A DNA stretch of 64,000 nucleotides, taken from NCBI GenBank assembly GCA_963698025.1, contig OY969112.1, positions 1,861,200 through 1,925,199 on the forward strand, given 5' to 3'. Origin of the DNA: an uncultured Acidobacteriota bacterium (lineage in GTDB: Bacteria; Acidobacteriota; Thermoanaerobaculia; Multivoradales; UBA5704). The position numbers and the translations under genes are program-made. The notes beneath the pieces are model-generated. The model saw only the letters and a list, made by a program, of their open reading frames with translations, did not search any database and had not been told where the DNA came from. Positions 2,256 to 64,000 of the stretch are shown piece by piece. The stretch's first letter is position 1; the number at the start of each line of letters is the position of its first letter.

Positions 2256-5200
2256 TTGATCCCGCATATCAAACTTTATGCGGCGATTCTGCTACTCGCT
2301 CTTCCAGCATTGGCACAAACGAGCGGCCTCCCTACATTTCCCAAGCGCTCTGGATATTGGATGAAGCCTATCTCAGAGCAGCTCGGCGTGTGCGATGGCG
2401 GCTCAGTGGCTTGGGCGCAAAGATCGGGGGATCAATATTCAAAGGAACTCGAACTCGTCGACAACGTCGGACGAGTGGTTAACCGATGGACTTTCCCCCT
2501 CTCAATTCGGGATTTTTATCGCACATCTAATTGCACCACTTCATGGGTTCTTTCACGAGATCGTCGCCATATCTTCATTGTAAACAGCTTAACCGATCGG
2601 GAACCCATACCTCTCGCCAATGGGAATGGGATAGATGAAGTACGGCGACTCATTCCAGCTGACGACGGGAGCTTCGCCTGGGTCTATTTCGAAACCCGCA
2701 AACCAGACATCGCTATTGCCATTCGGAGCCCTCAGGGAATCGTATTGCAGGAGATATCAGGGATTCCACCCGACCTGGAGAGTCAAGATTATTCCGCCAT
2801 AGCACAAGGTAAACGACTCCTGGCTATACCCGTCAGAGGAGTAGGGATCTACTTCATAGAGGCGTCGGGTGCCCACAACATTAGCAAGAAAGATCTTTCT
2901 AATGTTTATAGTACTAACACAGGAGAATTGGCTTGGCTTATACCCAGGCTCGATAAGGGCGTATATCTCGTCGATGGCACCGGTCGCCCTCTTAATCAGG
3001 GCGCGCCTTTACTGAAAGATGAGGACGTAGTCCAGGTCTACTCGCGTTTCCGCGAGAGAGACTCGTATGCCTGGGTGCGAACCCAGAGCGATAGACTGTA
3101 CGCATTTGCGCCGATAGAAACTCCTCAAGGTTGGGCGATTCGGCCTCTCAACCATGGACATCCGGTGGCAATCGGCGCACAAACTCTCGCGGTAGATCTC
3201 GCCAGAGTAATTGGTTCAGGGCGAGTGGCTTGGGTGACTTCACAAAGCCGCTTTGCTCCGCCAGGTGCATGGGGAGATATTTATCGTGTCGAGGTCCAAG
3301 GAGACGACATAGCAGTGTCTTCGGTGCCGCGTCAGTACTTTGAAGGTAAGTCCGTCAACACTCTTTTTTGGGACCTTGAAAACCCTTGGCGCTTCTGGGC
3401 CAGGAGCCCAGACCTGTGCCTCTATGAAGTAAGACTACATCCCCAGGGAAAGTCTGAACCTGGTACGGAAGCAGAGCCTGCAAAGGTCTTTGACCACCAC
3501 TCTTCCTGTGTGCTTGTGGAGCAAATTATACCGAGCGGAATTCCTAGTCGATATTGGATCAATGCGACCCCCTCATATTATCTCATGGGGCCAGCCAACG
3601 ACATAACTGAAGCCATAGTCAGCCTGGGGCATGCCAGATTGAGCCTCAAGACCCCCAGAGGGCATCGACTACGCTTCGCAATGCGTGAAGGCTCTTCAAT
3701 CCATGCCAGCCTGAACTGGCCTACCCGTGATGACCATCTAATGGACATGAACCCTGAGACGTCTCGGGAGCGTCCGCGGATCCATATAACGTTCCTTGAC
3801 CCTAGGGATCATCAATCCACTCCTCGAGCCGAAGGTGAAGGGTTCGCAGACAAGGGAGAAGCCAGCATCCTTCTACACACGAACGGAAGCTCACATTGGA
3901 ATGAGACCTATGATATTCAACTTGAATATCACGATCCGCAGACACTGACCAACTTTCGGATACTTTGGCCTGGAGTGACTCTCGCTCCAACATTATACGA
4001 GTTGGTTACTGCGAGCCCTTACTGGAAAGCCCTGTGGCTCCTCGCTCTTCCCATCTTTGCACTACTGCTCGCCATTAATAAGAGTTGGCGGGTTCGACGC
4101 TGGATTCCAGTAGCCGTATCAGCAATTGAGGTACTTATAGCTAGCCGACTCCCAGAACCGATCAAGACAACCCCCTTAGAATTACTTAGCGTCGCAGCAT
4201 GCTGCTCCCTTACAATGCTCCTAGCAGGCCTAGCCTCTCCAGCTTTATTCCGTGAGCTTGCATTGATTCAGCCGTTCCGTCTTCTAGTACCTGCCGCGCT
4301 TCAGTTGCCGCGCTTGCGGCGCCGGGTATGGAAGTCCTACGTAAAAAATGTCCGCATGCTTCTGCAAATTTTTCGAGAAGACGCAAGTAACGAGACCTAC
4401 GTCCCTCTGGCCACTTCGGTAGTTGGCAGCCGACCACCACAAGGATCTTCGGTCGGCTCACAAGCTGACGTGAAAAGCATCGTAACTGTTCTCTCCGCTA
4501 AAGATCCACAACACAGAGCTACTATCCTGATAGAGGCTCCAGGTGGCCGTGGTAAGAGTGCACTCTGGAACGAGCTTTTGGCACGCTGCCTGGATGCTTT
4601 TGAGAATGATCCGCTATGCCCTCTTCCAGTGATTGGTGACCCTCGATGCAGTACTGTAGAGTCGATGGTTGAGTCTGGACTTGGCCGTTTTGGCATCTCG
4701 CCGGACATAACTGCGGCGCAACTAAAGTCCGGCGAGTTCGTTGTCTTCATTGACAATTTGAGCAGCTGTGACCTAGCACCAGCTGATCTTGAGACCTTCT
4801 TTAGAGCTGGCGGGGATAAAACTCGGCTCTGCTTAACCAACCGACCTGATAAAGAATGGCGCGGGCCCGTACGCAGGGCTGACACGTGGATCATTGTTGA
4901 ACCGGAACGACTATCTGATTCTTCTATTTGGGGCTTCGTCGACAATTATGCAATTACTGATGCCATACGAATGAATCGAGATGCAGAGTCCTATACCAAA
5001 CTGGTCAGAGAGAAAGTGGAGAAGTTCCTACCCATCTGCCGCTCAGAGGATGGTTCTTACCTACCACTCTTGGTTCGGCTTTGCACATTGGCCATCGAGC
5101 GTGATATTAGTTCTATTGATGATATTTATCTGAGCGCATTAAGGCGCTTATTAACCCGAAAAGATGCCATGAGCAATCTCGATGTCGAGCGGGTTCTCGT

Positions 5201-6399: not shown

Positions 6400-7560
6400 T
6401 CAGTCGACCTTCTTGCCCGCTTCGAGCTGCTGGATCAGATCTTTCAGGTTGTTGCGGCTGGCGTCGTTCGGGGCCTGGGGCAGGGCGAGCCGGGCCTCGG
6501 CCAGGGCTTCCTTGCTGCGTCCCAGCGCGGCGTAGCCGCGGGCGAGCCCGACGTGCACCGGCCAGGCGTCGGGATGGCGCCTGGCGTTGAGCTGGAAGAT
6601 CTTCAGCGCCTCCTCGGGCTTCTTGTCGGCCAGGAGCTGGCGGCCGTAGAGATGGAGGTCCATGGCCTGGGCGGTGGGATGGTTGAGCGCCCGGTCCATG
6701 GTTTTGGCACCCTCGGCGGCGTGGCCGTTGAGGGTCTGGAGCTGCGCGAGCAGGGTGAGGGTGGTGAAGTTCTCCTGGCCGCTCTGGGCCGGATCGGTCG
6801 CGTTCCGGGCCCAGGTCTGGGCCTCTTCCAGGTCGATCTTGTTCTGCCGGCAGAAGTCCGCGGCGGCGACCCAGTTCTGCCAGGAGAAGCCGGCGCTGGA
6901 ACGCAGCTCGCGGCGCAGATTGTCGACGTAGAGCTGGTTGGCGTTGTCGACGGTGATCGCGATGGGGACCGCCAGGTTCTCCCACTTCAGCGCCACCGTG
7001 GCCTTGTCGTTCCGCCGCTCGGGGAACTCATAGGCCAGGACCTCGTGGTAGTCGCTCGGCTCGGGCTTCACCTTGACCCGCAGCGCATCCTCTTTGGCGT
7101 CGTAGAAGAAGCTCCCCCAGGACGTGGAGTTGCGGGAGAAGATGACCGTCCACTCGTCCTTGCCGGGAAGGAAGTGGAGCCCGTAGGAGCCGGCCGGCAG
7201 CGGCTGACCCTCGACCTTGATGTCGTGGGAGGTGGTGAAGACGGTGTTCTCGTTGGCGCCACCCCGCCAGGGGCACTGGTCGCCGCAGGTTCCGAAGCCG
7301 AGGCTGGCCATCCCGTAGGGGACGAGCTGCCCCCAGATCTTCCCCTTCCGGTCCTCGCCGAGCGGGCTGTGGACGTGGGGGCTGCTGTAATCGACGCTGA
7401 CGTGGACGAGGCCGATCTGCTGGATGACGGTCTGCCGCTCGTTGCCGCCGCTGGGAGGCAGCGTGACGCCGGGGGACTGGGCCGCGGCGGAGCCGGCGAG
7501 GCCGAGGGCGGCGACGACGGCGAGGGCCGTGGTGAGGCGAGACAGGGGGAAGCGGATCAT
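6400..7560 (-). CDS. Secreted DUF2911-like protein with C-terminal TPR repeats
   Basis: The start is ATG 7560, giving the signal peptide MIRFPLSRLTTALAVVAALGLAGSAAA. The ORF upstream of that Met is not part of the gene. The C-terminus has TPR-like helical repeats (EEALKIFQL..., GRSKEALAEARLAL). Confidence 0.75.
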   Translation of the reverse strand: MIRFPLSRLTTALAVVAALGLAGSAAAQSPGVTLPPSGGNERQTVIQQIGLVHVSVDYSSPHVHSPLGEDRKGKIWGQLVPYGMASLGFGTCGDQCPWRGGANENTVFTTSHDIKVEGQPLPAGSYGLHFLPGKDEWTVIFSRNSTSWGSFFYDAKEDALRVKVKPEPSDYHEVLAYEFPERRNDKATVALKWENLAVPIAITVDNANQLYVDNLRRELRSSAGFSWQNWVAAADFCRQNKIDLEEAQTWARNATDPAQSGQENFTTLTLLAQLQTLNGHAAEGAKTMDRALNHPTAQAMDLHLYGRQLLADKKPEEALKIFQLNARRHPDAWPVHVGLARGYAALGRSKEALAEARLALPQAPNDASRNNLKDLIQQLEAGKKVD

Positions 7561-10986: not shown

Positions 10987-12195
10987 ATGAGCACCGGAGG
11001 ACTCTCCAAGGCGCGGCTCGCCCGCATGCACGACGTCATGGCCGGCCATGTCGAACGCGGCGGAGTGCCCGGTCTCGTCACGCTGGTCAGCCGGCGGGGC
11101 GAGGTGCACGTCGATGCGATCGGCAGGATGACGGTGGACGGCGGCGATCTCATGCGCCGCGACACGATCTTCCGGATCGCCTCGCTGACCAAGCCGGTCA
11201 CGGCCGTGGCGGCGATGATCCTGGTGGAGGAATGCAGGCTGCGGCTGGACGAGCCGGTGGACCGGCTGCTGCCCGAGCTGGCCGGCCGCAGGGTCCTCAA
11301 GCGGCTCGACGGGCCGCTGGACGACACCGTGCCCGCGAAGCGGCCGATCAGCCTGCGCGACCTGCTGACCCTCCGCATGGGCATCGGCCACATCATGGCG
11401 CCGTCGAGCGCCTATCCCATCCGGAAGGCCCTCGACGAGCTGCGGCTCCTTCCGGGCCCCCCGCAGCCGCAGTCTTTACCGGGGCCGGACGAGTGGATCC
11501 GCGGCGTCGGGACGCTGCCGCTGATGCACCAGCCGGGCGAGAGGTGGATGTATGACCTGGGGCTGGACGTGCTGGGCGTCCTGATCGCGCGCGCCGCGGG
11601 CCAGCCGCTGGAGACATTCCTGCGCGAACGCCTCTTCGAGCCGCTCGGCATGAAGGACACGGGGTTTTATGTGCCGGCGGAGAAACTCGACCGGTTCCCG
11701 GACTGCTACCGGGGCCATCCCGCGACCGGGGCGCTCGAAATCTACGACGCCGCCGCCGACAGCCAGTGGAGCCGCCCGCCCGCCTTCCCGGCCGGCAGCG
11801 GCGGCCTGGTCTCGACCGTCGACGACTACCTGGCCTTCTGCCGGATGATGCTGGCGAAGGGAAGGCATGGCGAGCGCGAGCGCATCCTGTCCCGCCCGTC
11901 GGTCGAGCTGATGACCGCCGACCATCTCACCCCGGAGCAGAAGGAAGGGATGGACATCTTCTTCGGAGACGGCAGCGGCTGGGGATTCGGCATGGGCGTC
12001 GTCACCCGGCGCGACGATCTGGCGGCGGCTCCCGGACGGTTCGGCTGGACCGGCGGCCTCGGCACGTCCGGCTATTCGGACCCCCGGGAAGAGATGATCG
12101 GGATCCTGATGACCCAGCGCCTGATGGATTCCCCGCAGCCGCCGCCCGTCTTCCTCGACTTCTGGACCTCGGTCTACCAGGCGATCGACGACTGA
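10987..12195 (+). CDS. Serine hydrolase of the beta-lactamase / class C family
   Basis: The start is ATG 10987, with a GAGGAGG ribosome-binding site. The S-x-x-K motif is present in IASLTKPVTAVAAMILVEE. Confidence 0.85.
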   Translation: MSTGGLSKARLARMHDVMAGHVERGGVPGLVTLVSRRGEVHVDAIGRMTVDGGDLMRRDTIFRIASLTKPVTAVAAMILVEECRLRLDEPVDRLLPELAGRRVLKRLDGPLDDTVPAKRPISLRDLLTLRMGIGHIMAPSSAYPIRKALDELRLLPGPPQPQSLPGPDEWIRGVGTLPLMHQPGERWMYDLGLDVLGVLIARAAGQPLETFLRERLFEPLGMKDTGFYVPAEKLDRFPDCYRGHPATGALEIYDAAADSQWSRPPAFPAGSGGLVSTVDDYLAFCRMMLAKGRHGERERILSRPSVELMTADHLTPEQKEGMDIFFGDGSGWGFGMGVVTRRDDLAAAPGRFGWTGGLGTSGYSDPREEMIGILMTQRLMDSPQPPPVFLDFWTSVYQAIDD

Positions 12196-47184: not shown

Positions 47185-47213
47185 GACCGGAGCGGCCCTG
47201 AGACCAGACCCGT

Positions 47214-48228
47214 GTGTAGGGGCGCAGCATGCTGCGCCCTTTTGCTGCGCCCTTTTGCTGCGCCCTTTTTGCTGCGCCCTTTTGCTGCGCCCTTTTGCTG
47301 CGCCTTTCAACGGTCCGGTCCAGGAAAAAGGGCGCAGCATGCTGCGCCCCTACATACGGAATAGAGAAAGCAGACCTGCATGAGGGCGGACAGAGCGGAG
47401 ATGAGGATCTTGCCGGCGGGCCGGGTCCGGCATTCGATCCGTTGGCAGGGGTACGATTACACGAGCGCGGGTTGGTACTTCGTCACCCTGTGCGCCCAGG
47501 GAAGGGAGTGCCTGTTCGGCGAAGTGCGGGATGGAGCGGTCTTCCCGAGCGAGAGCGGACGGCTCGTGCAATCCTGCTGGGAGGCGATTCCCTCCCATTT
47601 TTCCCAAGCCGAGCTCGATGCCTGGGTCCTGATGCCCAATCACCTGCACGGCATCCTGGCGATCCGTCGCAACTCCCAAGGTGTAGGGGCGCAGCATGCT
47701 GCGCCCTCTCCTCCGGCACGCCGCCCGCCCTTCGTAAACTCTGGAGCCTTCCTCCCCCGCTCCTCACCGCTTCCATCGAACGTCTCTCCGGGTTCCCTGA
47801 GCGCGATCATCCGATCGTTCAAATCGGCGAGCACCCGGGAAGCCAACAAGGTGCGAGGAACGGCCGGCGTGACGATCTGGCAGCGCAACTACTTCGAGCA
47901 CGTGATCCGGGACGACAACGAGTTGGAGAGGATCCGCGCCTACATTCAGGAGAACCCATCCCGCTGGGAGGATGACCAGGAGAACCCTGCCAAGGCTTTG
48001 AAGCCTCCTACCGATCCTTTCCCCAAGGCGTAGGGGCGCAGCATGCTGCGCCCGCTCAACGGTCCGGCCCATGTAGGGGCGCAGCATGCTGCGCCCTTTT
48101 ACTGCGCCCTTTTGCTGCGCCCTTTTGCTGCGCCCTTTTGCTGCGCCCTTTTGCTGCGCCCCTTTTCCTGCGCCCTTTTTCCTGGACCGGACCGTTGAAA
48201 GGGCGCAGCATGCTGCGCCCCTACGCCT
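47214..48228 (+). mobile_element. RAYT (REP-associated tyrosine transposase, IS200/IS605-like Y1 HuH) unit flanked by REP family A palindromes containing tandem 13-mers
   Basis: The left structure (47214-47356) and the right structures (48031-48228) are built from GTAGGGGCGCAGCATGCTGCGCCCCTAC palindromes. Each encloses 6-7 tandem copies of TGCTGCGCCCTTT. The RAYT CDS lies between them. Confidence 0.8.
47380..48033 (+). CDS. REP-associated tyrosine transposase (RAYT, IS200/IS605 TnpA-like)
   Basis: The RAYT motifs are IRWQGYDYTSAGWYFVT, the HuH motif LMPNHLHGIL, and the catalytic Tyr region TIWQRNYFEHVIRD. A REP copy (47686-47711) sits in-frame inside the gene and encodes ...GVGAQHAAP... Confidence 0.85.
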   Translation: MRADRAEMRILPAGRVRHSIRWQGYDYTSAGWYFVTLCAQGRECLFGEVRDGAVFPSESGRLVQSCWEAIPSHFSQAELDAWVLMPNHLHGILAIRRNSQGVGAQHAAPSPPARRPPFVNSGAFLPRSSPLPSNVSPGSLSAIIRSFKSASTREANKVRGTAGVTIWQRNYFEHVIRDDNELERIRAYIQENPSRWEDDQENPAKALKPPTDPFPKA

Positions 48229-48559
48229 GGTGTCCCGACAGTCCCCCACCCTTGCTAAACTACCTCCTCAGGTCGACTCGAAAAGGAGCGGCCCGTTCGA
48301 TCTCCCTCCGGACGGCGGCTTTCCCGATCTCGCGCCCGATCTGCCGGGCCTCGCCCGCGCTGGCGGCTTCGGCACGGTGGACGCCGCCGCGCACGGCGTC
48401 CGGGCGGCGAGCGGAGCCGCGTGCCCGATCAGCTCCCGCTCTGGCTGACCAACCACTACCACCCCTGGCTCTATCGCCCCGCCGACGTCAACCGGGGTAC
48501 GACCCCGGGTGAGGTGATCGATCCTTGAGGCCATGAGGCGGGCGGGGTAAGGCGGCACT

Positions 48560-48630
48560 GAGGGCGACCGCAGGTCGCCCCTACAACCTCCGTTGAAATC
48601 TGTTGTAGGGGCGACCTGCGGTCGCCCTCA
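48560..48630. repeat. REP family B inverted pair
   Basis: The unit has the same 29-32 nt sequence as at 32445. Confidence 0.85.
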
Positions 48631-53002: not shown

Positions 53003-53039
53003 GGTTTGCCAGTCCGCCCCATCCGGACGACGCGCCGTT

Positions 53040-53110
53040 GAGGGCGACCGCAGGTCGCCCCTACAACCGCGGCCGGGATCTGTTGTAGGGGCGACCTGCG
53101 GTCGCCCTCA
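53040..53110. repeat. REP family B inverted pair
   Basis: Same unit as at 32445. It lies directly upstream of the helicase gene. Confidence 0.85.
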
Positions 53111-53196
53111 ACGGCGCCGTTACCGGATCGTCCCGCTCCACGAACGCTCAACCAAATGGTTGACAATACCCTCTCACCGACCCTATCCTCAACCAC

Positions 53197-54514: not shown

Positions 54515-54652
54515 ATGAAGAAGGCGAGCGTGAAGAAGATGGTGCTGAACAAGGAGACGCTACGGGGCCTGGAGCCCTCCTCGCTTGAGCAGATCTTAGG
54601 CGGGATGGATGACTCCGGCGCGCAAACCTGCCTGAACGCTGGCTGCTTATAA
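54515..54652 (+). CDS. RiPP / bacteriocin-like precursor peptide B with a double-glycine leader (45 aa)
   Basis: The ribosome-binding site AGGAAGGA precedes the ATG. The leader is MKKASVKKMVLNKETLRGLEPSSLEQILGG and the core is MDDSGAQTCLNAGCL. Confidence 0.6.
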   Translation: MKKASVKKMVLNKETLRGLEPSSLEQILGGMDDSGAQTCLNAGCL

Positions 54653-54800: not shown

Positions 54801-55007
54801 ATGAAGAGAAAGATGCTCGCCCTCGCCATCCTGCTCGGAGCCACCGTTTTCGCCTCCTCGGTCCCCCGTGCCGAGGCTACGTTCTCTTCCGAATGCGGTG
54901 CCCCCTTTTGCAGGTACACGAGCACCGTGTGCTACTGCTCGGCGAGCAGCGAGCACCCGGGCTGGGGAACCACCTGCGGCCAGTGGAAGATCGTGTGTTA
55001 CCAGTAA
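54801..55007 (+). CDS. Small secreted Cys-rich protein (68 aa, Sec signal peptide, 8 Cys)
   Basis: The ribosome-binding site is AAGGAGAG. The signal peptide MKRKMLALAILLGATVFASSVPRAEA is followed by the mature part TFSSECGAPFCRYTSTVCYCSASSEHPGWGTTCGQWKIVCYQ. The 3' tail is duplicated out of frame at 55008-55060 (AATCGGWKIACR). Confidence 0.6.
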   Translation: MKRKMLALAILLGATVFASSVPRAEATFSSECGAPFCRYTSTVCYCSASSEHPGWGTTCGQWKIVCYQ

Positions 55008-55130: not shown

Positions 55131-55700
55131 ATGACTGTGAATCGACGTTCCCTTCCGTGCGCCCTCGCCCTGGCTGCCGCCGTCACCCTGACACCGGCGG
55201 CGGTGCGAGCCGATGCCGCCGCCACGGCTTCCAAGGTGCCGGCAACCGGCACGGCCGCCCCGGACTTCAGTCTCACCACCAACGAGGGCAAGCCCGCCAG
55301 CCTGAAGGACTATCGGGGGCAGTGGGTGGTGCTCTACTTCTATCCCAAGGATTTCACCGGGGGCTGCACGCTCGAGGCGCACAACTTCCAGCGCGATCTG
55401 GCGAAGTACGAGAAGGCTCACGCGGTCATCCTCGGCGTCAGCGTCGACACCGCCGACTCCCACAAGAGCTTCTGCGCCAAGGAGGGCTTGAGCTTCAAGC
55501 TCCTGTCCGACCCCGACGCGCAGGTCTCGACCCAGTACGGCTCGGTGATGGCGTACAACGGAGCCAAGCTCTCGGCGCGGAACACCTTCCTCGTCGACCC
55601 CGAGGGGAAGATCGTGAAGGAGTTCGTCGGCGTCCACCCGGGCAGCCACAGCGAAGAGGTCCTCGCCGCCCTGGCCACCCTGCAGCGCCACGGATCCTGA
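55131..55700 (+). CDS. Secreted peroxiredoxin (Bcp / PrxQ-type, AhpC/TSA family)
   Basis: A signal peptide is followed by FYPKDFTGGCTLEAHNF, which carries the peroxidatic Cys. Confidence 0.9.
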   Translation: MTVNRRSLPCALALAAAVTLTPAAVRADAAATASKVPATGTAAPDFSLTTNEGKPASLKDYRGQWVVLYFYPKDFTGGCTLEAHNFQRDLAKYEKAHAVILGVSVDTADSHKSFCAKEGLSFKLLSDPDAQVSTQYGSVMAYNGAKLSARNTFLVDPEGKIVKEFVGVHPGSHSEEVLAALATLQRHGS

Positions 55701-55924
55701 TTCCACGTTTTCAGATTGCCAGCCCCAGAGTATCGCCCCTTCGGGGCTGGCCCCACTCCCCCAACCCCCTCTCACCCATCCTCCCCCCCCACCCACTGGG
55801 AGAGAGGGGGCTCGAAGAAGCTCTCTCAGACTAAAATGGGAGAAGAGGGCGGGGTGATGAGGGCCAGTGCCGGGCCGCCGCCGCCGCCGTGCCCTGGCCT
55901 CGTCGCACGACGGACCGCGAAACA

Positions 55925-56385
55925 GGCCTTAGAAGGCGTTCATATATACACTTCGTCGATTTTTATATACGCGAGCCTCACCTGGGCATCGGCGGAGGTC
56001 TTCTCTATATACGAATTGCTCCTGGATATATACAAAACACCGCCAATGAGGGCGGCAACCCCGATTTTTGGCGAATCAGCCTCTCCGGAAAGCTCTCCAA
56101 GGTCTCTGGATATATATAAAGCGCACAAAAATAGTGTTCCCGGAGGCTTGCCGACCTTTTTTTGAGGCATCTCTATATATTCGGAGCAGATTTGTATATA
56201 GGATTGGCTGCTTGGACCCCTTCGAGGGGGACTCTGTATATATTTTTTTCCGTTTTATATATAAAAAGAGGCGCCGGAATCCCTGCGAGCCCCTCAAAAG
56301 GCCGAGTCAGGGCTGCCGGAGCTCTCTCCAGGACAACTCCGTATATATTTTCCTGAGCTTTATATATAAAAAAGGCTCGTGGAAT
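55925..56385. repeat. AT-rich TATATA-box array (at least 11 copies), including two ~45-nt palindromic units (GTATATATTTTT..CC...TTTATATATAAAAA)
   Basis: TATATA(C/T) cores occur at about 55933, 55962, 56010, 56027, 56107, 56175, 56198, 56237, 56262, 56344 and 56366. The surrounding genome is about 70 % GC. No credible ORF is present. Confidence 0.7.
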
Positions 56386-56659
56386 GCTCGCGACGCCCCA
56401 TGCGAGCCTCCGAGTGCCGCCTCACCGCCTTCGGCTTCGCCGAATGAGTGCCCGGCCCCTCTTCCCCCGGGAACTGACCGAGGAGATGGCGGAGATCTTC
56501 CGGGCCCGGGACGTCCACCGCGAGACCCTGGCCGCCCTCGCCGTCTTCCAGGCCGCCGCCGCCCTCGACGTCGCCACCGCCGACCTGGCCCGCGATCTCG
56601 CGGCCTACCTCACCCGCGCCCGTCTGGACCCCGAACTGCGCTTCGAGCGGGAGCGCTGA
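56384..56659 (+). pseudogene. C-terminal fragment (about 70 aa) of the zf-HC2/TPR gene family
   Basis: LTEEMAEIFRARDVHRETLAALAVFQAAAALDVATADLARDLAAYLTRARLDPELRFERER is nearly identical to the C-termini of the proteins at 58492 and 60191. The preceding 19 aa are unrelated. Confidence 0.5.
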
Positions 56660-57195
56660 GCCCGCCCGGCTCGGGGAGCCACGTTTCGGTCCCCGACGGC
56701 TCGGCACCGCTGCCGGTTCGACCGGGGTGTCCGTGGCCCGCCGCGACCTCATCCCTATCCCCTTCTCCTAAAAGGAGAAGGGACGTCTCCGAAGCGTGTG
56801 GCCCGTAGGGTGCGCTGTGCGCACCCCGCTCCCCGCCCCCGCCCTGCAAGGGCGGACGTTGCCCAGCCTGGGTGGCAACCCACCCTCTTACATACAAGTC
56901 GCTGATCTTTGGATTCGGCTGCTCAAGGCAGGAATTCCGGACGCCCGCCCGCAGGGCGGATTTATCCAGCCTGGGGTGTCAACCCCAGGAAGGCGGCCCC
57001 AAGATCGACAAGCCCCGCAGGGCCGGCATGTCTTTGCCGATCGAAGCTCCCGTCGGGGTGTCGGCCCTGCGGGGCTTCCAGGGATGGGAGGGCACCCAGT
57101 CCTGGGGTTCGCTGTTCCTCAGGTTCGGTCAGCAGCCTGCTGACCAAGCCGGAGCGGCTAGCGGTCTCTGCCGGCTGGGCCAGGGCACCTTCCGC

Positions 57196-57540
57196 ATGCC
57201 GGTGACGGACAGCTACCAGCGTCGTTGCGCGGTCACGGGAGAGAAGGCCCTGCCGGTCCTCGACGCCGCCCACATCCTGCCGGTCGGCAAGGGGGGCCAG
57301 CACCGCCTCGACAACAGCCTCCTCCTCCGCACCGACGTCCACCGCCTCTACGACAAGGGCTACGTCACCGTCACCCCGGACGGCCACTTCCTCGTCAGCC
57401 GCCGCCTCAAGGACGACTTCGACAACGGCGAGCCCTACATGCCCTTCCATGGCCAGCGGATCTGGATGCCTGGAGACCCGGGGAGCCAGCCGAACCGGGA
57501 GACGCTGGAGTGGCATGCGGAGGGGGTGTTTTGGGGGTGA
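57196..57540 (+). CDS. HNH nuclease family protein (HNH_2 / restriction-endonuclease-like)
   Basis: The motifs are RRCAVTGEKALPVLDAAHILPV ... LLLRTDVHRLYDKGYVTV. The start is ATG 57196 (MPVTDSYQ). The upstream part of the listed ORF is repeat DNA. Confidence 0.7.
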   Translation: MPVTDSYQRRCAVTGEKALPVLDAAHILPVGKGGQHRLDNSLLLRTDVHRLYDKGYVTVTPDGHFLVSRRLKDDFDNGEPYMPFHGQRIWMPGDPGSQPNRETLEWHAEGVFWG

Positions 57541-57671
57541 GGGGCGCTGATCGGCACTGAATCTCAGACTAGCCGCACGACTCGCCTGGCACCTAATCCC
57601 CCCCCCCGCGGCGGCGAAGCGCCGGGGACCTCTGATGGCGGGTCCAGCCGGCCAATCTCGCATGCCAACAA

Positions 57672-57872
57672 TCAGCAGTTGCAGTTCGTGAATCCGTCGC
57701 ACGACGGACACGTTGCCCAGTCACAATAGGTATAGCCACAGCTATTACAGCCACTCGCTCCAGGGCAACCAGACGTGCCGGGAGGGTTACCACCCTCAAT
57801 CCCACGCAGAGTAGAATCTGTCAAGTTTCGCAATGTCTCTTTGCTTAGAATGAGCTTTCTTACTTTTCGCAT
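57672..57872 (-). CDS. RiPP precursor peptide C: double-glycine leader plus a Cys-rich (10 Cys) Ser/Thr-containing core, lanthipeptide-like (66 aa)
   Basis: The ribosome-binding site GGAG lies 8 nt upstream of the ATG. The leader is MRKVRKLILSKETLRNLTDSTLRGIEGG and the core is NPPGTSGCPGASGCNSCGYTYCDWATCPSCDGFTNCNC. The gene is AT-rich relative to its surroundings. Confidence 0.65.
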   Translation of the reverse strand: MRKVRKLILSKETLRNLTDSTLRGIEGGNPPGTSGCPGASGCNSCGYTYCDWATCPSCDGFTNCNC

Positions 57873-58089
57873 ACCTATCTCCTCTGTGAGCAGGTTAACT
57901 CTTCGGGCGATCGGACCGCGATTCGAGTGGCACCTCGCCTCGCCACTGAATCCGGACTGCAATCCCCGCGGGATTGTGTCGTGCACCCCTCATGCCCGAT
58001 CGGACGATCTCCTGCACCCTTTCTGATGACGGCCCGCTCGCGGCCAGGATGGCTGGCGGGACGCGGCCGTCCGAAAGGAGCCGTGCGCC

Positions 58090-58377
58090 ATGCGCCTTCG
58101 CCGTACCCTCGTGGTCCTCGTCCTGGCCGCCCTGACCTCCCTCTCTCCCGCGCTCGCCCACACCCGTCCAGCACGGGCGGAGCGAACCGTCGCCGCCCCC
58201 GGCCTCGTCGATCTCCTCCTCGACCAGCTCGCCCGGATCGAGGCGAAGGTCCTGGGAACAGAGGCCGGGGCCAGGCTCGACCCGAGCGGTGCCAAGAGCG
58301 ATATCGGATCGAGCCTCGAACCGGATGGCACTCGGAACGACAGCGGATCCAGCCTCGATCCGGACGGCGCGAAGTAG
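58090..58377 (+). CDS. Small secreted repeat protein (hypothetical)
   Basis: The ribosome-binding site is AAGGAG. A signal peptide is followed by tandem SSLEPDG / SSLDPDG repeats. Confidence 0.5.
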   Translation: MRLRRTLVVLVLAALTSLSPALAHTRPARAERTVAAPGLVDLLLDQLARIEAKVLGTEAGARLDPSGAKSDIGSSLEPDGTRNDSGSSLDPDGAK

Positions 58378-58491
58378 GAACGGCCCTCCGGGCCGGACGA
58401 GGCCGGCTCCGACCCGGACTTTTTTCTCTTCCCTGCCACGTTTCGGCGGGTTCGGGAGACTCTTCTCTTTAAGAGAAGGGAGAACCCAAGC

Positions 58492-59817
58492 TTGGAACAC
58501 CACCACCTGAACCGGGCCGTACTGGAACGCCTCCTGGCCGAGGACCGCACCGAGGACGAGAACCGCAGCCTCCTCCACCTGATCGCCGTCTGCCCGGAGT
58601 GCCGCAAGGCCGGCGGCTACCTACTCGATCTCCACCGGGCCGGCGCCCTGCCGCTCCACTTCGGTCCGGTGGACGTGGCCCTCGCTCTCTCGCGGGCCGA
58701 GGCGCCGCGCCTCTGGGAACGCCTCGCGCGCCACTCCCACGAGCGCCGCCTCGCCCTCGTCCGCACCACCCGGCGCTTCGCGAGTTGGGGACTCTGTGAG
58801 CTGCTCTGCCGGGAGAGCCGGAAAGCCGCCACGGACGATCCGATCCAGACAGCCCAATTGGCGGAGCTCGCCGTGCTCGTCGCCGACGCCCTCGAGGAGG
58901 GCTCGCCCTACGAGGCCGGCTGGGTCTACCAGCTCCGCGCCTTCGCCTGGGCCCATTTCGGTCACGCCCGCAGGATCGGAGGAGATTTTCAGGGAGCGGA
59001 GGAGGCGTTTTCGATGTCTGATCCCTGGTGGGAAGCGGGCGACGAATCCGTGGGAGACGCCCTCGGTTATGGCTTGGACATCCTTGCCTTGAAGGCCTCG
59101 CTTCGCACCGACCAACGCCGCTTCCCTGAAGCCCTGGCCCTACTCGACCGTGCATTCGCCGGATACCTCCACGGCGATCCCGAGTATCGTGACCGGCATC
59201 TGGCAGGTCGGATTCTCGTCAAGAAGGCACATGTCCTCACCCAGTTAACGGAGCCCGTACGAGCGATCCTTGCCCTCCAGGAAGCCGGGAAGCTCGTGGA
59301 CCCCGACCGCGATCCCCGCCTGCGCCTCTGCCTCCGGCACAACCTGCTGGACAACCTGGCGACGGCGGGACGGTTCGCGGAAGCGCGGGATCTGCTGCCT
59401 GAGGTGAAGGCGCTCTGCGGATCGGCCGGGAGCCGTCTCGACGAGATCCGCCTCCTCTGGGTGGAAGGCCGGATCGCGGCCGGACTGGGCGACCGGAGCA
59501 TGGCCCGGCAAGCCTTCGGCGACGCGCGGCGGGAGTTCGCCACCCGCGGAATGAGCTATGACGCGGCGCTGATCTCCCTCGAGCTGGCCGTCCTCCTGAT
59601 CGACGAAGGGGAGACGGCGGAGGTGCGGGAGCTGGCCGAAGAGATGACGGAGATCTTCCGGGCTCGGGACGTCCATCGCGAGACCCTGGCCGCCCTCGCC
59701 GTCTTCCAGGCCGCCGCCGCTCTCGACGCCGCCACCGTCGACCTGGCCCGCGACCTCGCCGCCTACCTCACCCGCGCCCGCCTGGACCCCGAGCTGCGCT
59801 TCGAGCGGGAGCGCTGA
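58492..59817 (+). CDS. Putative regulator with an N-terminal zf-HC2 motif (anti-sigma-factor-like) and a C-terminal TPR-like helical domain
   Basis: The start is TTG. H-x3-C-x2-C is present (HLIAVCPEC). TPR-like repeats occupy the C-terminus. The N-terminal domain is paralogous to the 26666 ORF, and the C-terminal domain is paralogous to the 60191 ORF and the 56384 fragment. Confidence 0.75.
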   Translation: MEHHHLNRAVLERLLAEDRTEDENRSLLHLIAVCPECRKAGGYLLDLHRAGALPLHFGPVDVALALSRAEAPRLWERLARHSHERRLALVRTTRRFASWGLCELLCRESRKAATDDPIQTAQLAELAVLVADALEEGSPYEAGWVYQLRAFAWAHFGHARRIGGDFQGAEEAFSMSDPWWEAGDESVGDALGYGLDILALKASLRTDQRRFPEALALLDRAFAGYLHGDPEYRDRHLAGRILVKKAHVLTQLTEPVRAILALQEAGKLVDPDRDPRLRLCLRHNLLDNLATAGRFAEARDLLPEVKALCGSAGSRLDEIRLLWVEGRIAAGLGDRSMARQAFGDARREFATRGMSYDAALISLELAVLLIDEGETAEVRELAEEMTEIFRARDVHRETLAALAVFQAAAALDAATVDLARDLAAYLTRARLDPELRFERER

Positions 59818-59962
59818 GCTAGCCGCACGACTTGCCTGGCACCTCGTCCCCCAGCACCTCGTCCCAGCGAGCTTCCGCCGTACCACACGGCGAACGCCGC
59901 TCTCCACTTGCCATCCAGTCTTTCTATATATATAATCAAATAAACTACAGGAGGACTTCAAA

Positions 59963-60169
59963 ATGAAACGTCGCGCCATGCTGATCTTCGGAATTCTCGC
60001 CGTGACCTCGATGACCTGGGCGGCAGCGCCTTCCCCGGCGATGGGCGATGCCAGCAAGCGCCAGCCCCTGTGCAACTGTAATGACGACTCGGATTGCCCG
60101 GCTGGCCAAGTTTGCAGCCCGGTGCGTTGTTCGGAATCAGGGGGTTTCTTCTCGGGAGTCTGCCGGTAA
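59963..60169 (+). CDS. Small secreted Cys-rich protein (68 aa, Sec signal peptide)
   Basis: The ribosome-binding site is AGGAGGA. The signal peptide MKRRAMLIFGILAVTSMTWAAAPSPA is followed by the mature part MGDASKRQPLCNCNDDSDCPAGQVCSPVRCSESGGFFSGVCR. The gene is AT-rich. Confidence 0.6.
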   Translation: MKRRAMLIFGILAVTSMTWAAAPSPAMGDASKRQPLCNCNDDSDCPAGQVCSPVRCSESGGFFSGVCR

Positions 60170-60190: not shown

Positions 60191-61165
60191 GTGCCGGCAA
60201 GCGCCCTCCCTTACCTGCCTAACACCCCCGGCGGGCAGCGCGGCGGGCGGCCCCTGGCCCTCCGCCGCGACCCGGTGATCGCCCCGCCGTTGCGAGTCAC
60301 CTGGCACCTGGTTTCTGGGCGAGTCGGAGGAGATATCAGGGGATCGGAGGAGACATTCTCCATGTCCGATCCCTGGTGGGAAGCGGGCGAAGAATTCGTC
60401 GGAGATGCCCTCGGGTATGGCCTCGACATCCTGGCTTTGAAGGCGCCGCTTCGCAGCGACCAGAGCCGCTTTCCCGAGGCTCTTGCGCTGCTCGACCACG
60501 CCCTCGCCGGATACTTCCACGGCGATCCCGAATACCGCGACCGGCATCTGGCAGGACGGGTCCTCATCAAGAAGGCCTATGTCTTTATCCGTATGGCGGA
60601 GCCCGAACAGGCGCTCCTCATTCTCCGGGAAGCCGAGGGGCTCGTGGTCCCCGACCGCGAGCCCCGTCTACTTCTCTGCCTCCGGCACAACCTGCCGGAC
60701 AACCTGGCGTCGGCGGGACGGTTCACGGAGGCGCGGGAGCTGCTGCCCGAGGTAAAGGCGCTCTGCGGATCGGCCGGGAGCCGTCTTGACGAGATCCGCC
60801 TCCGCTGGGTGGAAGGCCGGATCGCGGCCGGACTAGGCGACCGGAACATGGCCCGGCAGGCCTTCGGCGACGCGCGGCGGGAGTTCGCCACCCGCGGAAT
60901 GGGCTATGACGCGGCGCTGATCTCCCTGGAGCTGGCCGTCCTCCTGATCGACGAAGGGGAGACGGCGGAGGTGCGGGAGCTGGCCGAAGAGATGACGGAG
61001 ATCTTCCGGGCCCGGGACGTCCACCGCGAGACCCTGGCCGCCCTCGCCGTCTTCCAGGCCGCCGCCGCCCTCGACGCCGCCACCGCCGACCTGGCCCGCG
61101 ACCTCGCCGCCTACCTCACCCGCGCCCGTCTGGACCCCGAGCTGCGCTTCGAGCGGGAGCGCTGA
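60191..61165 (+). CDS. N-terminally truncated paralog of the zf-HC2/TPR protein (TPR-like domain only)
   Basis: It is homologous to 58492 from the GGD(F/I)(Q/R)G(A/S)EE(A/T)FSMSDPWW block onward. The GTG start and the first ~50 aa are unrelated. It may be a pseudogene. Confidence 0.55.
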   Translation: MPASALPYLPNTPGGQRGGRPLALRRDPVIAPPLRVTWHLVSGRVGGDIRGSEETFSMSDPWWEAGEEFVGDALGYGLDILALKAPLRSDQSRFPEALALLDHALAGYFHGDPEYRDRHLAGRVLIKKAYVFIRMAEPEQALLILREAEGLVVPDREPRLLLCLRHNLPDNLASAGRFTEARELLPEVKALCGSAGSRLDEIRLRWVEGRIAAGLGDRNMARQAFGDARREFATRGMGYDAALISLELAVLLIDEGETAEVRELAEEMTEIFRARDVHRETLAALAVFQAAAALDAATADLARDLAAYLTRARLDPELRFERER

Positions 61166-61501
61166 GCCCGCCCGGCCCGGGGAACCATGTCTCGACCCTC
61201 GACGACTCGGCGCCGCTGCCGATTCGATCGCGGCGTCCGTGGCCTGCCTCATCCCCTATCCTCTTCTCCTGAGGAGAAGGGGGACGATTCCGAGGCGCGG
61301 CCCGATGTCGCCGCCCCCGCGACCTCACCACATGACCGGGCCAACGGCCCGGGCTTCCTCAGCCCAGGGCACCGTCCTGGGTTCCGAGGGGACCCTGGAA
61401 GGCGATGCGGCCTGAAGGGCCGCGGCTACCCGGAGGTCGGATCACCCAACCGATAGCGCGACCCTTCAGGCCGCATCAGGTCATGAGGCGATGGCCGATC
61501 C

Positions 61502-61545
61502 CAGGGCGATGCCCTGGGCTGAGGGAAAACGGCCCGTTGGGCCTC
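61502..61545. repeat. Repeat element C, second copy
   Basis: See 44357-44400. Confidence 0.6.
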
Positions 61546-61710
61546 GGGGTGGCGCGTACTGGGGTTGACGCCCAGCCTCTTCTATACATCTCGCCGGCCG
61601 GGTACGTCCTGCCCTCCGAATCCTCACCCTCGGTCGCTCTCCCACAGGGAGAGGGAGGGCCCTGTTCCGAGCGACCTCGTGAAGAGGGAGGTTCCGGTAA
61701 CCGTGCCGCC

Positions 61711-61779
61711 GAGGGCGACCACAGGTCGCCCTACACCCGAGGTCGAGATCTGGTGTAGGGGCGACCTGCGGTCGCCCTC
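61711..61779. repeat. REP family B inverted pair (slightly diverged)
   Basis: GAGGGCGACCACAGGTCGCCCTACAC ... GGTGTAGGGGCGACCTGCGGTCGCCCTC. Confidence 0.8.
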
Positions 61780-62027
61780 GACGGCACGGTGTCCGGATGA
61801 ATCCAGCTTGGCAGCCCTGCCCGCGGGCGCCCTCCCTCTCCTCTGTGCCGGGACCGAGGGTGAGGATTCGAAGGGCAGCCGGCCCCGAGCGTCAGGCCGG
61901 GAGCGAAATTTCAACATCTACCCATGGAGTAATGAGCGGGATCGCTGTTCCTCAGGTTCGGTCAGCAGCCTGCTGACCAAGCCGGAGCGGCTAGCAGTCT
62001 CTGCCGGCTGGGCCAGGCACCTTCCAC

Positions 62028-62376
62028 ATGCCGGTGACGGACAGCTACCAGCGTCGTTGCGCGGCACGGGAGGGAAGGCCCTGCCGGTCCTGGACGCCGA
62101 CCACATCCCGCCGGTCGGCAAAGGGGGGCCAGCACCGCCTCGACAACAGCCTCCTCCTCCGCACCGACGTCCACCGCCTCTACGACAAGTCACCCGGACG
62201 GCCGCTTCCTCGTCAGCCGCCGCCTCAAGGACGACTTCGACAACGGCGAGCCCTACATGCCCTTCCACGGCCAGCGCATCTGGATGCCCGGAGACCCCCT
62301 GAGCCAGCCGAACCGGGAGGCGCTGGAGTGGCATGCGGAGGGGGGCTTTTGGGGTGAGGGACGCTTTGTCTTCTGA
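62028..62376 (+). pseudogene. Frameshifted duplicate of the HNH nuclease gene
   Basis: It is about 90 % identical to 57196-57540, but a 13-nt deletion at about 62190 and an earlier indel break the frame. The homology block starts at 61937. Confidence 0.55.
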
Positions 62377-62543
62377 GTCCACTCCGAACCGCATGGCACT
62401 TCGCTCTTCCCGCTCCCTCTCCCGCCCCCGTCCCTTCTGGTTCCTGTGGCTTGGGCACCTCCTTGCTTGCCGCTTCTCTATAGGCTAGGATTAAGAAACC
62501 GTTAGATAATTGCTGTTTAGGACAAGTTTCCCAAGCGGGGTTC

Positions 62544-63716
62544 ATGCTGGGGTATCGATTGGACGTTCATAGCACTGTGGTCGAGACTAGATCCGAGGAA
62601 AGAGCGGAGCGTGCTATCGCAGCTCTCGCAGCCGACTGGGAACGCCAAGAAGGCGTGCTGCGGAGATCTCAAGTCGAGAGATTAATCTTGAAGCGTTGTC
62701 TCTCGGTTGAGGAGGGAGTATACGTCTTTAAAGGCTTAGCCCGGCGGGGTATCGAGCTGGAAAACCCGGCCCGCAGCGATTCCACGAACGATGACAAGGC
62801 AACGTATCAAGGGTCCGAACAGAAGGGCGGAATTCTTGCAGAAGAGTTCTTGCCTTATTATTTCTCGCAACGCCTCTTATCTGCTCAAGAGGAGATCGAC
62901 CTCGGTCGAACAATACAGCTTGGTATCCTCGCACGGGCCGACCTCGAATCCGGCTTCGACAGCGACGAGCTTCGTAGCTTCGTCGCTCTAGGTGAGCGCG
63001 CACGGAACCGCCTCATCGAGGCTAATTTGAGGCTTGTCTTTTCAATGGCCCAAAAGTTCAAAGGGCAGACTGGCCTCGACTTAGGAGATCTCGTCCAAGA
63101 AGGCACTCTTGGACTACTCCGTGCAGCAGAACTCTTCGACCCTGACCTTGGCCTTAGGTTCTCGACGTATGCAACGCATTGGATTCGCCAAGGAATATGC
63201 AGGGGCGCGGATAGCTTCGGAGAGACTATTAGGCTACCAGTCCATCGAATGGATAGCATTCGCAAACTTAGACGCGCAAAACGAATCATTTCCATTGAGC
63301 TTGGCCGCCAGGCCACTATTCGAGAGATCGCCGAGGCCCTCGACTGGACACCTGAAAGAGTCGCCTACATTCAGTACTTATCCTCCGAACGGATCGTCTC
63401 GCTAGAGACACCCCTAGATAGCGAGAATAACTTGGTCTGGGGCGATACGATCGAAAGCCCAATACCCAACCCAGAGCAGCTATACATAGAGTCCGAACTC
63501 AGATACTTGATAGGCAACCTTCTCGACACCCTTACACCTCGTCAGCGAGCGGTTCTAATACGTCGATTTGGCCTGAGCAATGGCCACGAAGAGACGCTGC
63601 AAAGGATCGGCGATGACTTTTGTGTCTCTCGGGAGCGGATACGGCAGATCGAGACCAAGGCCCTGAAACGCGCGGCACCGCGAGCCAGATCAATGGGCAT
63701 CGAGCAGTTTCTTTAA
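62544..63716 (+). CDS. Sigma-70 family RNA polymerase sigma factor (regions 2, 3 and 4) with a ~110-aa N-terminal extension; lower GC than surroundings
   Basis: Region 2 is [13 protein letters not shown] ... [19 protein letters not shown], with [10 protein letters not shown] nearby. Region 4 is [23 protein letters not shown]. Confidence 0.85.
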
Positions 63717-63737
63717 CTTGGCAAGGCGGAGGACGGA

Positions 63738-64000
63738 ATGAGCGATAGTGAATATCATGCGACCGTGCGCTTCCTGGATTGGCTCGAGTCTCGCGTTATC
63801 GCCGCCGGCCGAGGCGATAACATTTTAACCTCCGATAATGACCCTTCGGGACGCTTCTGGCTCGGCCGGCTCGCGTCCGAGGAAAAGGTCGCCCGCATGG
63901 CGAGCGGCGACCGTGGCGAACGACTGGAACCATGTGCTGTTGGAATTAGGATTCAACCTGCCGGAATTGATCCCTGGAAGTTTGAAGTCAGAGTATTGGC
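63738..64000 (+). CDS. Hypothetical protein (5' partial at window end), low GC
   Basis: The ribosome-binding site is AGGCGGAGGA. It reads MSDSEYHATVRFLDWLESRV and runs off the end of the window. Confidence 0.4.
   Translation, partial: MSDSEYHATVRFLDWLESRVIAAGRGDNILTSDNDPSGRFWLGRLASEEKVARMASGDRGERLEPCAVGIRIQPAGIDPWKFEVRVL

Follow-up and report, generated by a model that had tools for sequence, protein, structure and literature searches.

Background

What holds a row of TATATA boxes in place in a chromosome where this hexamer is hardly expected? The question is raised by a stretch of 64,000 nucleotides from an uncultured member of the Acidobacteriota (class Thermoanaerobaculia; contig OY969112.1), which we call the window. 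An earlier inspection of its letters without database searches, here called the sequence-only reading, had pointed out an array of TATATA boxes around positions 55925 to 56385. It had proposed for this array a cluster of promoters, iterated binding sites for a protein, a DNA-unwinding element like that of a plasmid or integrative and conjugative element (ICE) origin, or a novel class of repeats. To our knowledge, gene regulation has been little studied in the Acidobacteriota, a large phylum of soil bacteria. The principle of phased arrays of sites is already well known. Our literature searches for phased box arrays of this kind found nothing relevant, and in Rfam, the plasmid and phage collections and the literature we found no described family that fits the array.

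In this study, we describe an array of eleven boxes that share one exact 21-bp register and one orientation in non-coding DNA, and in which boxes and register are under purifying selection. The reading we favour, at a little short of an even chance, is that the array serves as a scaffold on which a protein binds cooperatively along one face of the helix, upstream of an operon for a secreted protein and a TPR protein and at the edge of a defence island. Binding of a protein, its cooperativity and the adjacent operon as its target are three elements that we infer from the sequence.

Results and Discussion

Eleven boxes in one exact register

The window contains 17 matches to TATATA as compared to 0.26 expected, and none of 100 dinucleotide-preserving shuffles reached 17. 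Fourteen of these matches overlap to form eleven boxes between 55943 and 56368, in agreement with the at least eleven boxes in GC-rich surroundings that had been noticed before; the remaining three belong to a single TATATATATA at 59925-59934. The sequence-only reading had taken the intervals between boxes to be irregular, at 20 to 80 bp. They are strictly regular. Counted from the first box the offsets are 0, 21, 63, 84, 168, 231, 252, 294, 315, 399 and 420, and if the sequence is written in lines of 21 bases every box starts in the same column. The chance that the ten other boxes fall into the residue class of the first box modulo 21 is about 6e-14. The array proper (55935..56396, plus strand) comprises 22 frames of 21 bp, in eleven of which TATATA occupies frame positions 9-14 and a T frame position 5. 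The boxes are mostly paired at 21 bp, with one or three box-less frames in between. On the plus strand, the pairs lie at 55943..55969 (TATATA at 55943 and 55964), 56006..56032 (56006 and 56027), 56174..56200 (56174 and 56195), 56237..56263 (56237 and 56258) and 56342..56368 (56342 and 56363), and a single box, the fifth of the array, is found at 56111..56116.

A T occupies position -4 of all eleven boxes, which gives the array polarity and makes T-N3-TATATA its unit; all of these motifs share one orientation. With an exact register over 420 bp, the centres of the sites are placed at whole helical turns, on one face of the DNA.

The array is non-coding, as had been supposed. Each of the six frames contains stop codons (1-4 each) and the guanine-plus-cytosine (GC) content is 0.45-0.49 at every codon position, as compared to a third-position GC content of 0.83 or more in real genes. 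A coding heptad repeat, in which 21 nucleotides would stand for seven codons, is ruled out by the stops in all frames and by the absence of a codon-position bias. In base composition the array (GC 0.44-0.50, overall 0.47) stands apart from the window as a whole (0.68). When the 100-bp windows of the 64 kb are ranked by nearest-neighbour free energy, the five of lowest stability fall into the array, with -121 to -128 kcal/mol against a median of -162. Other stretches of low stability, at 2830-2980 and about 4910-5010, rank within the lowest twelve.

Selection on the boxes and on their spacing

Carrier assemblies were recovered by look-ups of close homologues of the peroxiredoxin and the TPR protein encoded in the neighbourhood of the array. 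Besides the window, four metagenome contigs carry it (L104, L192, L197 and L198); as the array of L198 is that of L197, four distinct versions could be compared. The carrier samples are JGI 3300051787, 3300062860, 3300060462 and 3300050473. Since five independent assemblies carry the array, it is not an assembly artefact, the outcome that the sequence-only reading had itself named as a refutation. The versions are 5-11% diverged and lie in a common block (55874..56465, plus strand) of 89-95% identity, both flanks of which are rearranged in the window.

All eleven offsets in the other versions are identical to those of the window, and not one gap column occurs among the four versions across 462 bp. 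None of the 77 columns that make up the boxes and their T at -4 (66 and 11 columns, respectively) is variable, as opposed to 75 of the other 385 array columns (19.5%; binomial P 6e-8, Fisher 3e-7). Immediate box flanks are free to change, whereas the core hexamer is conserved. Moreover, where TATATA occurs as overlapping copies within TATATATA octamers, L104 and L192 have kept only the copy that is in register: the overlapping copy at 56113 next to the single box and the out-of-register copy at 56256 in the fourth pair have both been lost. Selection thus acts on a short oriented motif together with an exact two-turn register, through a divergence between the motifs that is near saturation.

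Three further runs in the block are invariant. A box-less run of 53 nt at its left edge (55876..55928) and a run of 34 nt at its right edge (56408..56441), both given on the plus strand, fold no better than shuffled sequence. A run of 42 nt near the centre of the array (56119..56160, plus strand; AAGCGCACAAAAATAGTGTTCCCGGAGGCTTGCCGACCTTTT) likewise has no structure beyond that of shuffled sequence and is possibly a candidate for a separate protein site.

Frames, halves and flanks

Frames with and without a box tend to be built alike, with GC at the borders and, near the centre, an AT-rich patch that has T-tracts on its left and A-tracts on its right. Even box-less frames have kept features of the box frames, such as the T at position 5 and CYGGA before the centre. 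The array shows a sharp AA/TT periodicity of 10.5 bp, which we do not count as independent evidence of curvature, because the T- and A-tracts flanking each box produce it. Two halves of 231 bp (55935-56165 and 56166-56396) have the same pattern of boxes. They align free of indels with 46% ungapped identity, and outside the boxes with 38% against a background of 25%; they represent an old duplication of a 231-bp higher-order unit.

The last four boxes had been described as two near-identical units and as 45-nt palindromes. Two related units do exist, 105 bp apart and identical at 28 of 38 positions; the supposed palindromes are only 54-62% self-complementary, and this mostly because the TATATA cores are self-complementary. 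Of 77 positions in the box flanks 18 are complementary, fewer than the 24 that permutation gives on average, and complementarity within boxes is no higher than between boxes. Flank palindromy at chance level points to recognition of duplex DNA and not of a hairpin. The permutation test on box-specific flank complementarity, and with it selection for a hairpin or cruciform, was negative for the window and for most of the other arrays described below. On the same flank values the array does not belong to the clusters of repetitive extragenic palindromic (REP) sequences, bacterial interspersed mosaic elements (BIMEs) or REPINs. The REP family proper to this genome, GTAGGGGCGCAGCATGCTGCGCCCCTAC, which is associated with a REP-associated tyrosine transposase (RAYT), is GC-rich and unrelated to the array. 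The sequence-only reading had also set aside a CRISPR array, and rightly so: 6-7 bp are conserved per 21-bp unit, Tandem Repeats Finder and a repeat finder detected no long repeat in the array, and a Pfam scan of the neighbouring genes detected no cas gene.

The operon that follows the array

Gene positions confirm that the array lies between the peroxiredoxin gene (55131..55700) on one side and a fragment encoding a TPR C-terminus together with an HNH gene on the other. The best named relatives of the peroxiredoxin come from Thermoanaerobaculia and Acidobacteriota. Ancestrally, the array is followed by an operon (58090..59817, plus strand) that encodes a secreted protein of 95 amino acids (58090..58377) and a TPR protein of 441 amino acids (58492..59817). 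In L104, L192 and L197 (=L198) the array is directly upstream of this operon, which starts 130-230 bp after it; in these carriers the secreted protein has 84-97 and the TPR protein 441-477 amino acids. A segment of 1.5 kb found in the window alone (56468..57964) separates the two and contains the TPR C-terminal fragment, an HNH_2 gene and, on the minus strand, a gene for a peptide with a GG leader; within it, 56468-57540 duplicates 60974-62354.

The genes downstream of the array look like a defence island. An HNH gene among them resembles a phosphorothioate-DNA restriction enzyme and a sigma factor is closest to MzaA, both with matches below the curated cut-offs, and at the position of the defence-like genes of the window L104, L194 and L195 have methylase, McrBC-like and SRA-HNH genes. 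The suggestion that the array is the regulatory hub of the locus thus stands in one respect, as the array directly precedes the operon in the other carriers. It is weakened by the duplicated segment that intervenes in the window, by TPR loci at 75-84% identity that have no TATATA array, and by similar arrays that flank unrelated genes.

Similar arrays in other Acidobacteriota

One genome per species was scanned for four TATATA boxes at offsets 0, 21, 63 and 84, a pattern that also returned much AT-rich noise. At least nine other loci of Acidobacteriota with a GC content of 64-68% (L001, L014, L022, L033, L044, L053, L056, L076 and L102) contain TATATA pairs 21 bp apart with a period of 61-63 bp. 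Nearly all TATATA in the 3-8 kb fetched for each of them sit in one array of such pairs, and boxes beyond the four demanded by the search pattern are also in register. In L102 the pairs are constant at 21 bp while the period from pair to pair varies between 61 and 63 bp. The 71 boxes of these other arrays have common flank preferences (Y at -4, C at -9 and G at -13), and their box-less frames are often in-register palindromes of the form sCGGA-N6-TCCGs, a motif echoed in the box-less frames of the window. The unit consensus is specific to each genome; L033 and L044 come from a single metagenome-assembled genome. Low-GC arrays of 21 bp in Bacteroidota, Ignavibacteria, Treponema and others are not claimed to be related, because the search pattern selects any 21-bp repeat that contains TATATA. 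A scan of metagenome contigs with a six-box pattern, in a collection without the carrier contigs, gave TA-rich noise only.

Other boxes occur at the same period. In L022 (824-1560), between hsdM and tyrS, about 36 consecutive 21-bp frames keep one register while the type of box changes three times, from GGGTTGCGACGCT (about 14 copies, then two inverted) to CTATCGGCG (four copies, then inverted) and finally to TATATAA pairs. L194 and L106 have no TATATA array, yet other arrays of 21 or 42 bp lie beside their TPR genes. In L194 (4300-4720) GGCCCA-N5-TGGGCC palindromes form a 21-bp array after a TPR C-terminal remnant, at a place comparable to that of the TATATA array. In L106 (4189-4530) a 21/42-bp array of CGGCGr-N5-yTCGCCGG hairpins followed by T5 comes just after the TPR gene; by their sequence these hairpins look like tandem terminators. 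A scan for periods in 18 high-GC loci placed 14 of 25 periodic segments at 21 or 42.

A scaffold for cooperative binding as the favoured reading

Among the options put forward by the sequence-only reading, iterated protein-binding sites best fit the strict helical phasing of the boxes and the purifying selection to which the hexamers are subject. The element is an old tandem array of 21-bp units, 22 of them in two 231-bp halves, that has kept T-N3-TATATA in half of the units. As we picture it, a sequence-specific protein would recognise this motif on double-stranded DNA, occupy one face of the helix and oligomerise cooperatively. Strong binding would take place at the box pairs, while frames without a box would be spacers or weakly bound. 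Having the weakest base stacking of any hexamer, (TA)3 could provide both recognition and bendability. The array sits where conserved housekeeping genes give way to a variable island of defence and peptide genes, some 165-590 bp upstream of the promoter that probably serves the secreted-protein/TPR operon. Given this position at the island boundary and upstream of the operon promoter, distant silencing, insulation or activation of the operon seems most plausible.

Several known systems resemble such a scaffold in part. Dimers of phosphorylated BvgA line one face of the helix at intervals of 22 bp, and the ptx promoter has six of them (PMC7250471). At the ptx and fha promoters of Bordetella the site centres are, as in our array, two turns apart, on one face and upstream of a promoter, and a few strong sites together with weak sites filled cooperatively recall the layout proposed here (PMC7250471). 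The BvgA arrays differ in having 3-6 sites over 66-132 bp and in abutting the -35 element, in contrast to 22 frames over 462 bp that end about 165 bp from the probable promoter. Their core is a heptad inverted repeat and not TATATA, and no response regulator is linked to our array. ARG boxes are AT-centred sites of 18 bp that come in pairs 3 bp apart, so that their centres are separated by 21 bp, and a single oligomer binds them on one face. In the array, the T found at -7 relative to the centre and the T-WWWW-A core align with the ARG-box consensus TGAAT-WWWW-ATTCA. Window positions -6 to -4, however, mismatch GAA, and among the 71 boxes of the other arrays only 17 of 142 half-sites have A at -4; in addition, ArgR operators have one to three boxes compared to eleven here, and the array has no link to arginine genes.

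Plasmid initiators also bind iterons that are two turns apart. The iterons of RK2, F, P1 and R6K share with the array direct repeats of the same polarity about 21-22 bp apart, on one face and AT-rich. They differ in conserving 17-22 bp per unit beside a rep gene and DnaA boxes, whereas the array conserves T-N3-TATATA only. Clusters of REP and BIME sequences are likewise dispersed, intergenic and regularly spaced beside unrelated genes, with a genome-specific unit consensus; the boxes of the window differ in lacking palindromic flanks and covariation. H-NS, Lsr2, MvaT and CarD-type proteins prefer flexible DNA rich in TpA. An AT-rich TpA island in a GC-rich genome, at the border of acquired defence genes, is what the nucleation sites of xenogeneic silencers or AT-hook proteins look like as well. 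These proteins are, however, not known to require an exact hexamer or an exact 21-bp phase, and no member of their families is recognised in this organism.

A number of observations weigh against the scaffold. As the four versions are only 5-11% diverged, the absence of indels among them is modest evidence when taken alone. The TPR loci without an array mean that it is not required for the operon. The neighbours of the other arrays are mutually unrelated (hsdM, KAP NTPase, PIN, YhgA-like transposase, VWA, tyrS and others). All-against-all BLASTP and phmmer comparisons of the open reading frames (ORFs) near more than 50 array loci, together with Pfam searches of 86 flanking proteins, detected no family that recurs beside arrays, and neither a candidate binding protein nor a conserved neighbouring regulator was found beside them. 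Selection for TATATA could reflect physical properties instead of protein contacts. Since the arrays of L022, L194 and L106 use different boxes, the period of 21 bp may be a repeat-making habit of the clade and not the mark of one protein; gain and loss of whole units in a tandem array is another route to an exact register.

A wider idea is speculative and on the whole unlikely: exactly phased arrays of 21-bp boxes could be undescribed architectural elements of the chromosome in Thermoanaerobaculia and other Acidobacteriota, serving as docking tracks for a family of DNA-binding proteins that form filaments and by which the borders of variable defence islands are marked or silenced, with the TATATA-pair type standing beside the GGCCCA-N5-TGGGCC and GGGTTGCGACGCT types. 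If a protein does read the array, the latter is a ready bait, and binding is predicted to depend on the T-N3-TATATA boxes and on their two-turn phase. In this way a protein of chromatin or of gene regulation might be found in the Acidobacteriota, and an array at the border of a variable island could show how GC-rich bacteria insulate or silence such islands.

Other explanations of the array

A serious rival, though in our view a distinctly unlikely one, does without a protein. The array would be a supercoil-sensitive unwinding or hyper-flexible region that absorbs torsional stress or insulates the defence island, and (TA)3 would have been kept as the hexamer easiest to melt or kink. The proposal of a DNA-unwinding element may hold in so far as it concerns this physical property. 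The low GC content and stability of the array are in line with it, AT-rich patches alternate with GC clamps in each frame, and the core hexamer alone is under selection while its immediate flanks vary. Even so, melting needs neither an exact 21-bp register nor a T at -4 that points the same way in all eleven boxes, nor does it account for the retention of only the in-register copy of overlapping boxes; the three long invariant GC-rich runs of the block are left unexplained. Even as a physical element only, the array would be an unusually clean case of selection on DNA geometry, with a register kept through near-saturating divergence. Improbable, too, is a 21-bp minisatellite typical of the clade that would be largely or wholly without a function. 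Its register would come from duplication of whole units and unequal crossing-over, and its boxes would be ancestral remnants. The likeness of box-less to box frames, the duplicated 231-bp unit, the arrays of other boxes in comparable places in L194, L106 and L022 and the prevalence of periods of 21 or 42 in high-GC loci all agree with such an origin. A clade habit of making repeats explains the register, however, and not the selective retention of boxes: a neutral repeat would lose boxes and gain indels at the rate of its spacers, while here the units have diverged to near background outside boxes and still boxes, T at -4 and register are intact, without a single variable column.

Promoters driving small transcripts or the flanking genes, with each TATATA as a -10 element, are a quite improbable explanation. 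Isolated TATATA boxes in the genome of the window and in L104 do lie in front of genes for small Cys-rich peptides, at a distance of 27-50 nt. One of them, at 59925, falls within TTGCCA-17-TATAAT (59908-59936), which matches the sigma-70 consensus at 11 of 12 positions and served as a control; in L104, a similar lone box precedes the peptide gene of that contig. Several array boxes read TATATT, i.e. five of six positions of TATAAT with T at the last. Nevertheless, no -35 partner in the array brings the match beyond 8 of 12, and the boxes with these best partners lack the T at position 6 of the -10 element, so that the promoter cluster of the sequence-only reading is not supported. A consensus scan for promoters found none in the array of either the window or L104, none of the boxes is followed by a conserved ORF or a structured RNA, L104 and L192 have lost the ATG at 56384, and the 21-bp phase plays no role in this model. 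Action at the level of RNA, through a long 5' or 3' untranslated region or a CsrB-like sponge in which UAUAUA or GGA repeats bind an RNA-binding protein, is very improbable. By eye we counted 13 GGA motifs on the plus strand of the array, and the whole region folds better than shuffled sequence (z -4.1 and -3.5). This folding signal comes from the self-complementary boxes pairing mutually, with unstable centroid structures; covariation of the flanks is absent, Rfam 15 gave no match with E below 1 inside 55925-56400, and the GGA motifs are not conserved (e.g. 56024 G to C in L104 and L192), for which reason the idea of a CsrA sponge was rejected. Least credible of all, and hardly to be believed, is a replication origin that combines iterons with DNA prone to unwinding, or else the terminus of a mobile element or of a miniature inverted-repeat transposable element (MITE). 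Direct repeats two turns apart in AT-rich DNA recall the origins of RK2, F and P1, and the block has stayed intact at the edge of a defence island while both its flanks were rearranged in the window. The conserved 6-7 bp per unit are nevertheless far from the 17-22 bp of iterons, and the plasmid or ICE origin once proposed finds no footing: a Pfam scan of the neighbours detected no Rep, no rep, par or transposase gene lies within the locus in any carrier, no DnaA box within one mismatch was found, and none of 72,556 plasmids showed similarity. Likewise, a scan of viral contigs, which also disposes of a phage element, gave only AT-rich giant-virus and tandem-repeat noise. Terminal inverted repeats and target-site duplications were not seen at the block edges, and the block occurs only at the syntenic site in the five assemblies, the source genome being represented by the window alone.

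Neighbouring genes and other repeats

One possibility is that the secreted protein and the TPR protein form a peptide-receptor pair, another that they belong to a defence system. A gene for a secreted protein of 84-102 amino acids always directly precedes a gene for a TPR protein of about 441 amino acids with a CPEC motif near its N-terminus (window 58090-59817; L104, L106 and L192-L200). The family is large (913 matches) and often found beside methylase, McrBC-like or HNH genes. In the window, the secreted-protein gene contains repeats of 13 amino acids (39 bp). The segmental duplication 56468-57540/60974-62354, which also involves 59626-59900, comprises the end of the TPR C-terminus and HNH_2 and is 92-100% identical in pieces; the HNH copy at 61565-62357 is broken by frameshifts. 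A sigma-70 family gene (62544..63716) lies in the tail of the window (62400-64000), where the GC content drops to 0.52-0.58. In NCBIfam it matches MzaA best, at 243 bits and well below the cut-off of 800; MzaA serves as sigma factor in the MZA anti-phage system.

Four small peptide genes were found at 54515-54652, 54801-55007 and 59963-60169 on the plus strand and at 57672-57874 on the minus strand. Two of them have leaders of the double-glycine type (…LNKETLRGL…GG) and two are Cys-rich with signal peptides; the one at 59963 is preceded by the near-consensus promoter at 59908-59936 mentioned above. Copies of the Acido-Lenti-1 RNA motif (RF01687) occur within a few hundred bases of three TATATA arrays: in the window at 56946-56989 (minus strand; 30.5 bits, below the threshold of 37), in L104 at 11851-11898 and in L001 at 6432-6477 and 6594-6639. 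This motif looks like a dispersed hairpin repeat.

At 47200-48230 the window contains a RAYT-like Y1 transposase ORF (47380..48033; Pfam Y1_Tnp, 26.8 bits), flanked on both sides by GTAGGGGCGCAGCATGCTGCGCCCCTAC hairpins and tandem 13-bp units TTTTGCTGCGCCC. A second REP-like palindrome, GGGGCGACCGCAGGTCGCCCCTACAAC, forms an inverted pair at 53020-53128 and is present as single copies elsewhere (61729-61799 and 48560-48590).

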